Shown: in pieces, positions 1 through 4,151 of the stretch
How positions within the stretch are numbered: the first letter of the stretch is position 1
How the letters are laid out: each line of letters opens with the position of its first letter
Assembly (NCBI GenBank): GCA_963667255.1
Contig: OY762940.1
Span: forward strand, 992,001 to 1,056,000
Direction: 5' to 3'
DNA length: 64,000 nt
Origin: Candidatus Cloacimonadota bacterium
GTDB taxonomy: Bacteria; Cloacimonadota; Cloacimonadia; G963667145
Program-made: the position numbers and the translations under genes
Notes under the pieces: generated by a model
Database searches by the model: none
What the model was told of the DNA's origin: nothing
Seen by the model: the letters and a program-made list of their open reading frames with translations, nothing else

Positions 1-123
1 CAAAGACAGCCAGGATGTTAGCTTAGAAGCAGCTATCATTTAAAGAGTGCGTAATAGCTCACTGGTTAAGTGGTAATGCACCGAAGATGATCGGGACTGA
101 TAAGTATAATACCGAAATCGCGG

Positions 124-436
124 CCAAGCACCTATTTTTAATTTTGAATTAAGGAGTAGCTATGTATTATGTCTATTTACTGAAAGAAATAAATAGAAAC
201 TTACATTATATTGGTTACACCAAGGATTTAAAACGACGGATTTCTGAGCATTTGAGTGGTAAGAGTGAGTATACAAGTTTTGGTAATTGGAAGCTTGTAT
301 ATTATGAAGCTTATTTATCGGAAAGTGATGCGAGAAAAAGAGAAAGAATGCTGAAACAGAATGGCAATTCTAAAAGACATTTATTAAAGAGAGTTGAAAA
401 TTCTGATAAAGTTTGAAGTTAAAAATAGGTGCTTGG
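124..436 (+). other. Intervening sequence (IVS) in 23S helix 45
   Basis: AT-rich insert between conserved ...ACCGAAATCGCGG and GGTAGGAGAGC. Arms 124-148 (CCAAGCACCTATTTTTAATTTTGAA) and 412-436 (TTTGAAGTTAAAAATAGGTGCTTGG) form a 25-bp stem: 18 contiguous Watson-Crick pairs, extended with G-U pairs. Confidence 0.92.
162..416 (+). CDS. Small GIY-YIG nuclease (YhbQ/SLX1-like), encoded inside the 23S IVS
   Basis: YYVYLL...HYIGYT.DL.RR..EH and EA...E..A..RE..LK motifs; SD AAGGAG at 151-156. Confidence 0.9.
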   Translation: MYYVYLLKEINRNLHYIGYTKDLKRRISEHLSGKSEYTSFGNWKLVYYEAYLSESDARKRERMLKQNGNSKRHLLKRVENSDKV

Positions 437-1132
437 GGTAGGAGAGCATTGTAGTCGGCGTTGAAGGTGTCTTGTAAGAGATGCTGGAGTGGCTACAAGA
501 GAGAATGCTAGCATGAGTAGCGATAATGCGGATGAGAAGTCCGCACACCGAAAACCCAAGGTTTCCTGAGTAAAGAAAATCTGCTCAGGGTTAGTCGGCC
601 CCTAAGGCGAGTCTGGTTTCCAGGGTAGCTGATGGGAATCTGGTTAATATTCCAGAACCTGTTATGGGAAGTGATGGAGTGACGCGGCGTTGCAGTGGAG
701 ACACCGGCTGAAAGTGGTGTTGAATGTGCGTAAGAAGTTCGGTTGGCAAATCCGCCGAGCAATATTCTGAGACACAGGACGAGAGCTTATGCTCGCAAAG
801 TCCACCTATAGTGCTGCCAAGAAATAACTTCTAAGCGTTTATGTCATAACAGACCGTACCCCAAACCGACTCAGGTGGGTGAGGAGAGTATCCTAAGGTG
901 TTCGAGAGAATTCTGGTTAAGGAACTCGGCATATTGACCCCGTAACTTCGGGAGAAGGGGTGCCGGGGGAAGTGATTACCTTCGCGGTATGAGCATGCCC
1001 CCGGCCGCAGTGAAAAGATTCAAGCGACTGTTTATCAAAAACACAGGTCTATGCAAACTTGCAAAAGAAAGTATATAGACTGACACCTGCCCGGTGCCGG
1101 AAGGTTAAGTGAGAGAGTGCAAGCTCTTGAGT

Positions 1133-1229
<97 letters not shown>

Positions 1230-1480
1230 GAATACTGTCTCAACCAGGATCTCGGTGAAATTGTAGTGGCGGTGAAGATGCCGCCTACCCGCGAACGGAC
1301 GGAAAGACCCCGTGAACCTTTACTATAGCTTGACATTGTGATTTGATGAGGTATGTGTAGGATAGGTGGGAGATTTTGAAGCGGTGACGCTAGTCGCCGT
1401 GGAGTCAACCTTGAAATACCACCCTTATGTTGTTGAATCACTAACGCTAGTAGTTACCCTACTAGCAGACATTGTCTGGT

Positions 1481-1513
<33 letters not shown>

Positions 1514-1671
1514 AGTAACGGAGGCTTACAAAGGTTCCCTCAGATTGGTCGGCAATCAATCGAAGAGCATAAAGGTATAAGGGAGCTTAACTGCGAGACT
1601 GACGGGTCGAGCAGATGCGAAAGCAGGTCTTAGTGATCCGGCGGCTCTGTATGGAAGGGCCGTTGCTCAAA

Positions 1672-1704
<33 letters not shown>

Positions 1705-1760
1705 ACCGCCTAAGAGTTCATATCGACGGCGGTGTTTGGCACCTCGATGTCGGCTCAACT

Positions 1761-1791
<31 letters not shown>

Positions 1792-1814
1792 TGGCTGTTC
1801 GCCAATTAAAGAGT

Positions 1815-1861
<47 letters not shown>

Positions 1862-1978
1862 TTCGTGGGAGTAGGAAATTTGAGAGGATTTGCATCTAGT
1901 ACGAGAGGACCGGTGTGAACAAACCTCTGGTGTATCGGTTGTGGCGTCAGCTGCATTGCCGAGTAGCTAAGTTTGGAA

Positions 1979-2020
<42 letters not shown>

Positions 2021-2186
2021 AATAGATTTCCCTATGAGAACCGTTGGAGACTACAACGTTGATAGGTCACAGGTGTAAGAGTAGTAATGCTCTCAGCCGA
2101 GTGATACTAATTGTTCCATTGGCTTATTTTTTTCTTTTTAATATCTCACCAACTTTTTATCATAACGATTTGTTTAAAGCTCTTTG

Positions 2187-2663: not shown

Positions 2664-4151
2664 ATGGAGAAAGTAAAACTTCAAGAGAAGTACCAATTGT
2701 TTATTGGTGGAGAATGGAGAGACGCTTCAGATGGAGCGACTTTTAAAACATCTTGTCCGGCAGATGGTAGCTTTTTGGCTGAATGTGCACAAGCAACCAG
2801 AAGTGATGTTGACGATGCTGTAAAAGCTGCTTGGAACGCTTTCCCTGCGTGGAAAGCAACTACAGCTGCCCAAAAAGCTGTAATTCTGAACAAAATAGCT
2901 GATATCATTGATGAGAATAAAGAGTTCTTGGCAATGGTAGAGACTATGGACAACGGTAAGCCAATTCGTGAGACTATGAATGTCGATGTTCCTTTGTCAG
3001 CAGAGCATTTCCGTTATTTTGCTGGATGTATTTTGGCTGAAGAAGGTAGTGCGAGTATGTTGGGGACAGAGACATTGAGCCTTATTCTTAGAGAGCCCAT
3101 TGGTGTTGTTGGACAGATAGTCCCTTGGAATTTCCCGTTTTTGATGGCTGCTTGGAAATTGGCTCCAGTGCTTGCCAGTGGTTGCTGCACTGTTTTCAAA
3201 CCTTCCAGCACTACATCTTTGAGCGTTTTGGAACTTGCTCGTCTTATTCAAGATGTTATTCCTAAGGGCGTGTTCAATGTAGTTACCGGTTCAGGTTCTA
3301 AGGCAGGTCAATTCATTTTGGAACATGAGGGATTCCGCAAACTCGGTTTCACTGGGTCTACAGAAATTGGTAAAGACATAGCCAAAGCTGCTGCTAACCG
3401 TTTGATTCCTGCTACATTGGAGTTGGGTGGAAAGTCTGCTAACATCTATTTTAACGATTGCAATTGGGAAATGGCTATGGACGGTCTTCAATTGGGCATT
3501 TTGTTCAACCAAGGTCAAGTTTGTTGTGCCGGTTCACGCGTTTTTGTGCAAGAGGATATCTATGATAAATTTGTAAAGGATGCTGTGAATAGATTTAACA
3601 AGGTAAATGTGAATTTGCCTTGGAAAGATGACACACAAATGGGTGCTCAAGTTGATGAAAATCAAATGAAAACTATTTTGAGCTATGTTGATATTGCCAA
3701 AAAAGAAGGTGCAACTATTGCTTGCGGTGGCGAAAGGCTCACTACTGGCGAATTGGCTAAGGGTTGCTTTATGAAACCTACTTTGATTACCAATGTTACT
3801 AACGATATGCGTGTTGCTCAAGAGGAGATTTTCGGTCCTGTTGCTGTTATTATCAAGTTTAAGACTGAGGACGAAGTTGTCGCTATGGCTAACGACAGTA
3901 TTTACGGTTTGGGTGGAGCTGTTTGGACACGCGATATTAATCGCGCTATCAGAGTTTCTCGTGCTATCGAGACTGGGCGTATGTGGGTAAATACTTACAA
4001 CTCCATTCCTGAAGGAGCACCATTTGGTGGTTACAAAGAATCTGGTATCGGTAGGGAAACACACAAGGTAATCTTGGAACACTATACTCAAATGAAAAAC
4101 ATTATGATTAACCTTGCAGAAGTACCAAGCGGATTTTATCCTCAAAAGTAA
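2664..4151 (+). CDS. NAD-dependent aldehyde dehydrogenase
   Basis: PWNFP, GFTGSTEIG, LELGGKS, catalytic Cys in GQVCCAG, EEIFGP, FGGYKESGIGRE. Confidence 0.96.
   Translation: MEKVKLQEKYQLFIGGEWRDASDGATFKTSCPADGSFLAECAQATRSDVDDAVKAAWNAFPAWKATTAAQKAVILNKIADIIDENKEFLAMVETMDNGKPIRETMNVDVPLSAEHFRYFAGCILAEEGSASMLGTETLSLILREPIGVVGQIVPWNFPFLMAAWKLAPVLASGCCTVFKPSSTTSLSVLELARLIQDVIPKGVFNVVTGSGSKAGQFILEHEGFRKLGFTGSTEIGKDIAKAAANRLIPATLELGGKSANIYFNDCNWEMAMDGLQLGILFNQGQVCCAGSRVFVQEDIYDKFVKDAVNRFNKVNVNLPWKDDTQMGAQVDENQMKTILSYVDIAKKEGATIACGGERLTTGELAKGCFMKPTLITNVTNDMRVAQEEIFGPVAVIIKFKTEDEVVAMANDSIYGLGGAVWTRDINRAIRVSRAIETGRMWVNTYNSIPEGAPFGGYKESGIGRETHKVILEHYTQMKNIMINLAEVPSGFYPQK

Follow-up and report, generated by a model that had tools for sequence, protein, structure and literature searches.

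The helix-45 insert and its surroundings

The window analysed here is a stretch of 64,000 nucleotides from the genome of a Candidatus Cloacimonadota bacterium. It opens within a 23S rRNA gene in which one terminal helix is replaced by a hairpin insert that contains a small open reading frame (ORF), and the features of this locus are collected in Table 1. The insert has a GC content of 30% versus 49% in the flanking 23S sequence. It falls in the hairpin at around 1206-1226 of the Rfam LSU model, and its flanks align to positions 1163 and 1186 of the E. coli 23S rRNA, so that the stretch between them has been replaced; helix numbers such as helix 45 are used here as what we take to be the names of positions fixed by alignment. 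The two arms form 27 contiguous pairs, G-U pairs included, around an ungapped core of 21 nt that is 95% complementary, and their fold has a z-score of -6.2, with none of 100 shuffled sequences being equally stable. The TGA stop codon of the ORF (414-416) lies within the 3' arm, and fewer than 10 nt of the insert are left besides the arms, the Shine-Dalgarno-like sequence and the ORF.

Table 1. Features of the 23S rRNA insert, its sister copies and the rRNA sites occupied by the family (window coordinates unless stated otherwise).
Feature	Position	Strand	Remarks
Whole element	124..436	+	313 nt, replaces the terminal helix at E. coli 23S 1164-1185
5' arm of terminal inverted repeat	124..150	+	opens with the family end motif (C/T)CC(C/A)GCAC, here CCAAGCAC
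Shine-Dalgarno-like AAGGAG	151..156	+	just outside the stem, 5 nt 5' of the start codon
GIY-YIG nuclease ORF (predicted)	162..416	+	single-domain, 84 aa
3' arm of terminal inverted repeat	410..436	+	overlaps the ORF stop codon
Host 23S rRNA gene, 3' part	1..2131	+	Rfam LSU 1735 bits; 5' part lies before the window
Gene-less sister copies	G000:C1 990,891-990,973; 991,072-991,149; 991,433-991,511		78-83-nt hairpins
23S sites replaced in the family	E. coli 152-176, 540-553, 1164-1185, 1361-1370, 1707-1751, 1867-1874, 2791-2805		plus the helix-15 position
16S sites replaced in the family	E. coli ~69-100, 452-480

Misassembly can be ruled out, since a contig of sequencing run X19 bridges positions 37-611, across both junctions, with no differences and at a depth of 82.8 versus 87.4 on the flank, and the alleles described below are also seen in reads. 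A group I or group II intron is likewise ruled out, as no catalytic RNA core was matched: over positions 100-460 Rfam gave no intron family even at an E-value of 5, and one chance match to a snoRNA was the only hit. With a long stem-loop in place of a variable helix and without a ribozyme core, the insert has the features of an rRNA intervening sequence (IVS). A gene for RNase III is present in all 12 genomes searched. In RNA run X1 the reads are confined to conserved rRNA and leave the insert uncovered, and the RNA runs found contain at most 0.29 of the words. Beyond the 5S gene lies an aldehyde dehydrogenase gene (window 2664-4151, about 43% GC), followed by a block of membrane and glycosyltransferase-like genes of 22-30% GC, a region that is likely to be foreign DNA.

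The protein encoded by the insert matches the GIY-YIG family PF01541 with 60.4 bits (cut-off 22.6) and scores 21.9 against TIGR01453, the group I intron endonuclease model (cut-off 56). When 111 homologues are aligned, Y16, G18, R26, H30 and E61 are among the invariant columns, of which Y16, R26, H30 and E61 are presumably the catalytic Tyr, Arg, His and Glu. The predicted structure has a pLDDT of 92, and its best fold matches are to UPF0213 proteins and Slx1, with I-TevI lower. The domain match, the catalytic residues and the modelled fold all place the protein in the GIY-YIG superfamily, with nuclease activity as its predicted function. Neither the domain search nor the structure model gave a DNA-recognition domain. 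As judged from codon comparisons, the ORF is under purifying selection, with a dN/dS of 0.06 between the host genome (G000) and a same-genus relative (G001) and of 0.06-0.15 in five other measurable pairs. The sequence-only reading had described an AT-rich insert of this length at helix 45, with no space for an intron core and an intact gene for a GIY-YIG catalytic module without additions; all of this is borne out, with a stem slightly longer than the 25 pairs it had counted.

Sister copies and alleles within the genus

The host genome is a single closed contig of 1.59 Mb with two rRNA operons. Three gene-less copies of the element, with arms that are nearly alike, lie upstream in the same 23S gene at helices 10, 15 and 25, and a fifth copy, also gene-less, replaces a terminal helix of the RNase P RNA. 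The genome thus holds four copies in one 23S gene and one in the RNase P RNA gene, with the nuclease gene in one copy only. The second operon has no insert at helices 10 and 25, and its helix-45 ORF is disrupted by an in-frame stop and a deletion of 4 nt. Filled and empty alleles each appear at about half depth in runs X19 and X21, and the broken ORF is seen in runs X20 and X21.

Comparison of 12 operons from six closed genomes of the same genus reveals a patchy distribution. The nuclease version resides at helix 45 in G000 and G001, where the proteins are 86% identical, and at the helix-15 position in G002, where the protein is 59% identical and the arm is a variant; three of the six genomes have no nuclease. 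Most operons have a gene-less version at helix 15, and some have one at helix 10 or 25; in one of the G001 operons none of the four helices is filled. The empty helix-45 allele, found in G001 operon b and in run X22, is a native hairpin of 24 nt. Native helices are replaced from the base (helices 15, 25 and 45) or, in the case of helix 10, from a start of 5 nt that is shared, and loop-less, arm-like hairpins with the look of relics occur in G003 (helix 45) and G002 (RNase P RNA). The orthologous RNase P site carries one arm variant in G000 and G001 and the other in G005, each variant being present also in the 23S gene of the same genome, a pattern that suggests copying from one locus to another within a lineage. 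A broken nuclease copy is present at helix 15 of two more distant relatives in the class, and nuclease pseudogenes are found in G000 operon b, G009, G011 and G122.

A number of other small insertions accompany these copies. G002 has two extra gene-less copies (L413:780-860, at G002:C1 ~938,384, and L416, at G002:C1 ~1,068,600-1,068,690) in non-coding DNA of higher GC content, which has the appearance of structured RNA genes and no Rfam match at an E-value of 0.01. Behind a ferredoxin-like gene of the host genome (G000:C1:72,616-72,651, L398), a terminator-like hairpin is arm-like in G000 and G001 and not in four relatives, and may be a relic or a case of convergence. The 16S-23S spacer of both host operons contains, between tRNA-Ile and tRNA-Ala, a gene for a 115-aa four-helix-bundle protein of the 23S_rRNA_IVP family (106 bits; G000:C1:990,094-990,441, L007:5095-5442), which is bordered on both sides by short tandem repeats in inverted runs and represents a second small ORF-in-hairpin element in the same operons. 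AT-rich hairpin inserts that look unrelated occur at 23S helices 10, 25 and 68 in other members of the class, G034, G008, G022 and G056 (L055, L058, L178 and L179), one of these inserts having heptamer tandem repeats. Finally, L169 and L180 have a 748-nt insert near the end of domain IV with an ORF that we take to be LAGLIDADG-like.

A family with shared ends and many sites

Homology searches gave 812 matching proteins of 46-147 aa. The loci studied were the best 80 from genomes and the best 80 from metagenomes which, after removal of 29 exact duplicates or edge cases, left 131; they are close relatives, some of them near-identical, and such kin are not independent. An inverted repeat around the ORF (score at least 12) is found at 94 of the 131 loci, with a null of 5 in 300 for mismatched flanks. 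The gene lies inside a 16S or 23S gene at 56 loci, 53 of them with the repeat, and in or beside an rRNA operon at 11 more; 23 loci are tRNA-adjacent (3 with the repeat) and 41 are in other places (28 with the repeat). The ends follow the consensus (C/T)CC(C/A)GCAC(C/T)T in the 61 elements that could be anchored, which are 255-339 nt long; the remaining 33 repeat-bearing loci were left out, 20 for want of an anchorable end motif and 13 for repeated flanks.

Around ten rRNA sites are occupied (Table 1), in addition to intergenic sites and an RNase P RNA, at which one family locus lies. No common target sequence is apparent among the flanks of the rRNA copies, one of which shows, by eye only, a likeness to the duplicated tetramers described below; the constant feature across sites is the element's own end motif rather than the target. 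In a FastTree phylogeny of 193 proteins over 83 columns, all motif-bearing proteins belong to one clade of 137 (support 0.88), which includes 32 proteins without repeats, and helix labels are intermixed on this tree, where inner support is weak. Copies are hosted by Ca. Cloacimonadota, Deferribacter, Methylotuvimicrobium, Nitrospirales, Desulfobacterales and others. At four Gammaproteobacteria loci, all within helix 25, the gene lies between two whole units. When 40 mostly non-rRNA loci were searched with Rfam, the sole neighbours named were RNase P, tRNAs, rRNAs and group I introns.

Some members depart from this pattern. Gene-bearing copies in distant taxa share the same flanks at L116, L133, L154, L290 and L325; the left flank resembles what we take to be the start of the tmRNA tag frame, and Rfam gave no confirmation of tmRNA at these sites. 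At L093, L122, L123, L135, L136, L139, L144, L160, L161, L166, L168 and other loci, close homologues without the inverted repeat are found just upstream of a tRNA gene, within a few bases of it, which may point to a different lifestyle within this nuclease family. Related homologues with long C-terminal fusions (open frames of 253-671 aa) are present at L115, L145 and L153.

Target duplications and copy number

Outside the rRNA genes, a number of genomes contain the element in a form that allows the insertion itself to be recognised. In a Parcubacteria record (G070, L137), exact direct repeats of 4 nt flank 14 of 22 copies, against a cross-site null of 0.058; the tetramers differ between sites, and both gene-bearing copies are duplicated. 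In a Methylotuvimicrobium genome (G061, L094) the tetramer is present on both sides of 18 of 21 copies, and the genome has 112 occurrences of the empty target, which contains one tetramer. A third genome, G072, has the duplication at 4 of 8 copies. Such 4-nt target duplications imply real insertion events.

The arm occurs 329 times in G061, as gene-less units of 65 nt. These units (L219-L238) mostly reside in the loop of a second, REP-like palindrome family that has 60-303 empty copies per genome, so that one repeat family parasitises another. Four genomes of this genus that have the gene, all copies of which are in 23S, contain 280-365 arm matches, whereas one that lacks it has 33; a sixth has 26 arm matches, the gene search having covered the other five. 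Among 61 genomes of another family the gene is found in 3, all with paired arms; two have arms without the gene, and the genome whose genes are all broken has just 2 matches. Drafts often lack assembled rRNA, and kin are not independent. The counts are circumstantial and suggest that copy number follows the gene.

A nuclease that may move its own hairpin

We consider it reasonably probable that the element is a gene-bearing member of a hairpin-ended insertion family, which is moved by its own nuclease and removed from rRNA by RNase III. A bolder proposal, which is offered only tentatively, is that a lone GIY-YIG nuclease acts as a transposase, making this a new class of transposable element and, at some 300 bases, among the smallest known. 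Equally tentative is the full form of this proposal, in which the enzyme would recognise its own hairpin, generate the 4-nt duplication and swap copies into rRNA and RNase P helices, thereby seeding both IVSs and palindromic repeats.

The protein would be translated from the rRNA precursor or from the excised piece. By analogy with SsnA and its repeat, it is likely to recognise the stem that its ends form in single-stranded DNA, nicking near the base of that stem. A copy of the cut end would then probably be made at a new location, with a preference for DNA hairpins in stable-RNA genes that are heavily transcribed, and the joint would be sealed by host repair. A simple insertion would leave the 4-nt duplication, and in genes for structured RNAs the only surviving copies would be those that replace a dispensable terminal helix; the replacement could be made by the enzyme or arise by selection after insertion. 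It is likely that host RNase III cuts the long stem out of the 23S rRNA, sparing the ribosome. Gene conversion may carry surviving copies from one rrn operon to another, and loss of the gene and reduction to a bare hairpin may follow; such gene-less derivatives, too, are likely to be moved to new sites by the nuclease.

Several findings count against this account. The strong repeat is missing at 20 of the 23 tRNA-adjacent and 13 of the 41 other homologues, the second helix-45 ORF of the host is the broken one described above, and gene-less copies exist without a detected nuclease in G003-G005, G072 and G094. The 4-nt duplication is absent from the copy at 124-436 and from 28 of 28 rRNA copies, and is present at 3 of 33 gene-bearing copies outside rRNA across taxa, where 0.7 would be expected and some of the 33 are really inside rRNA. 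An SD-like 4-mer is found in only 29 of the 56 in-rRNA copies; one close pair, with few changes, has a dN/dS of 0.50, and four pairs are saturated. No strand-joining chemistry is known for hydrolytic GIY-YIG enzymes, and short target duplications usually indicate a DDE transposase. The ORF of the Coxiella helix-45 insert is apparently not made in vivo, according to Warrier et al. (PMC4990558).

Alternative explanations and related systems

An unlikely but conventional explanation is that the hairpin is a miniature inverted-repeat element (MITE) moved in trans by an ordinary DDE or HUH/RAYT transposase, with the GIY-YIG gene as cargo or accessory. Terminal inverted repeats together with 4-nt duplications (G070, G061) are the classic DDE signature, internal-deletion derivatives are a further likeness to DDE insertion sequences and MITEs, gene-less copies persist without the nuclease, and DDE_Tnp_1 matches occur in 6 of 12 genomes and Y1_Tnp matches in 6 of 10 searched. 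Unlike DDE elements, these have no transposase inside, measure 255-340 nt in all and replace helices without duplication. No DDE transposase, in two Pfam families searched, was found in the element or as a partner with the same ends, and no arm pair was seen at the 20 transposase loci examined (6 of 52 DDE_Tnp_1 and 14 of 16 Y1_Tnp matches). G070, the genome richest in clean duplications, has no match to DDE_Tnp_1 or the IS1380 type, the two DDE families searched, whereas G072 has 32 DDE_Tnp_1 and 4 Y1_Tnp matches and few units, its nuclease-bearing relatives having ten times more. It is also unlikely that a passenger would be conserved in many phyla as the only content between these ends. REPIN-RAYT and IS200/IS605 systems, which have hairpin ends, share with the family the dispersal of gene-less inverted-repeat units in large numbers and an enzyme gene flanked by two complete units, as in some of the Gammaproteobacteria here; they differ in that GIY-YIG is not an HUH tyrosine transposase and in that stable-RNA genes are the main home of the present family.

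The enzyme of the Ssn system belongs to a sister family, and it is rather improbable that the present family is a domesticated system of this kind, in which single-stranded DNA cutting at cognate hairpins limits recombination or uptake at rRNA and other loci, with gene conversion or some other process spreading the repeats. In the main text of Chenal et al. (2025, PMC11893778), Ssn is a single-domain GIY-YIG protein of about 85-95 aa that is associated with an NTS/SRM hairpin of its own, with up to hundreds of repeats per genome, and NTS-ssnA-NTS is suggested to be a domesticated mobile element; rRNA is unmentioned there. The same text (PMC11893778) reports that SsnA cuts single-stranded DNA beside its own hairpin, even with the two halves of the repeat supplied apart, and lowers transformation. 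The present family, too, pairs a single-domain GIY-YIG protein of similar size to Ssn (cd10448) with its own hairpin repeat, and the purifying selection would fit a host role. Set against this are the patchiness, the pseudogenes and the moves between helices, all of which fit a selfish cycle, and the target duplications, which mark real insertions. The SRM motif was found within 200 nt at 0 of 131 loci (positive control, 3 of 70 other GIY-YIG loci). SRM-flanked proteins, taken as a proxy for cd10448 since SsnA itself is outside the tree, branch apart in the 83-column FastTree phylogeny and are about 31% identical, and in the present family, unlike Ssn, the gene mostly occupies the loop of a single long inverted repeat. 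An Ssn-like role and movement by the nuclease can coexist.

The sequence-only reading had proposed a minimal selfish element that homes between rrn operons by means of its nuclease. The first part of this proposal, a selfish element that is not an intron, is supported, and many homologues, at 56 of the 131 loci, do lie in rRNA genes. Filled, empty and broken alleles differ between operons, and the insert is not a lone helix-45 homing element, other helices and the RNase P RNA being filled as well. Classical homing, in which the empty helix-45 duplex would be cut and the insert copied in by double-strand-break repair, is very unlikely as the mode of spread. It would account for the same copy at the same site in both G000 operons and throughout G071 and G075, for a helix-25 site common to many distant taxa, and for gains, decay and losses that resemble a homing cycle, and the family shares with I-TevI-type endonucleases the catalytic fold and a gene in a removable insert. 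The roughly ten sites are unrelated and without common flank sequence, however, and close proteins occur at different helices, with site labels intermixed in the phylogeny; G001 and G002 retain empty alleles alongside an intact gene, and gene-less copies with duplications elsewhere would be left unexplained. Unlike the I-TevI type, the family has no DNA-binding extension, no intron and no fixed site.

GIY-YIG ORFs in rRNA inserts of CPR bacteria that are unlike either intron class, at several poorly conserved sites, were described by Tsurumaki et al. (2024, PMC11270868), citing Brown et al. (2015), and are probably the same proteins as the present family. The main text of that study places such genes outside a homing context and contains no shared ends, gene-less family or duplications, nor the word 'inverted'. 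The copy at 124-436 lies outside the CPR, and the hosts listed above do not support the earlier suggestion that these inserts are mainly a CPR feature. That the protein is a host factor for RNA or branched DNA, sited in rRNA for production in step with ribosomes, is highly unlikely: the sense orientation of the ORF at 65 of 67 rrn loci and the predicted Slx1-like fold agree with it, but the gene is missing from 3 of 6 same-genus and 58 of 61 other-family genomes, the inverted ends and duplications are left unexplained, and SsnA leaves RNA untouched in the main text of Chenal et al. (PMC11893778).

The family must also be set beside the classical IVSs. These are known from the 23S rRNA of Salmonella and Leptospira as well as Coxiella, and we know of no mobiliser for them. 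The Coxiella helix-45 insert is excised by RNase III, according to Warrier et al. (PMC4990558). Like the classical IVSs, the present elements form a long stem in a variable helix (25, 45), are patchy between operons, have no ribozyme core and are probable RNase III substrates, and some classical IVSs also carry an ORF. They differ in that the ORF here encodes a nuclease rather than a four-helix-bundle protein and in that one set of ends is shared by copies at many helices, in intergenic sites and in RNase P RNA, with relatives that have target duplications. Overall, the family resembles a tiny insertion sequence and appears to work like an Ssn or RAYT system, and it falls outside each of these groups. 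GIY-YIG genes in non-intron rRNA inserts are already published, whereas no description of the end motif, the gene-less family or the duplications was found in the literature searched, although subscription papers or supplements may hold one.

Implications for rRNA intervening sequences

The origin of rRNA intervening sequences and their spread from helix to helix have been open questions for decades, and the family described here is a candidate driver of both. The Cloacimonadota genus in which it was found offers a clean natural experiment, with filled, empty, broken and relic alleles together in closed genomes. If the proposal is true, it would add a new class of enzyme able to move DNA and would give a function to thousands of mini-genes annotated as 'putative endonuclease'. 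It would also explain some dispersed palindromic repeats, such as those behind the more than 300 arm matches in Methylotuvimicrobium genomes. Moreover, with a short cognate hairpin of its own for each protein, the family may be a second source, after Ssn, of site-specific single-strand nucleases of 84 residues.
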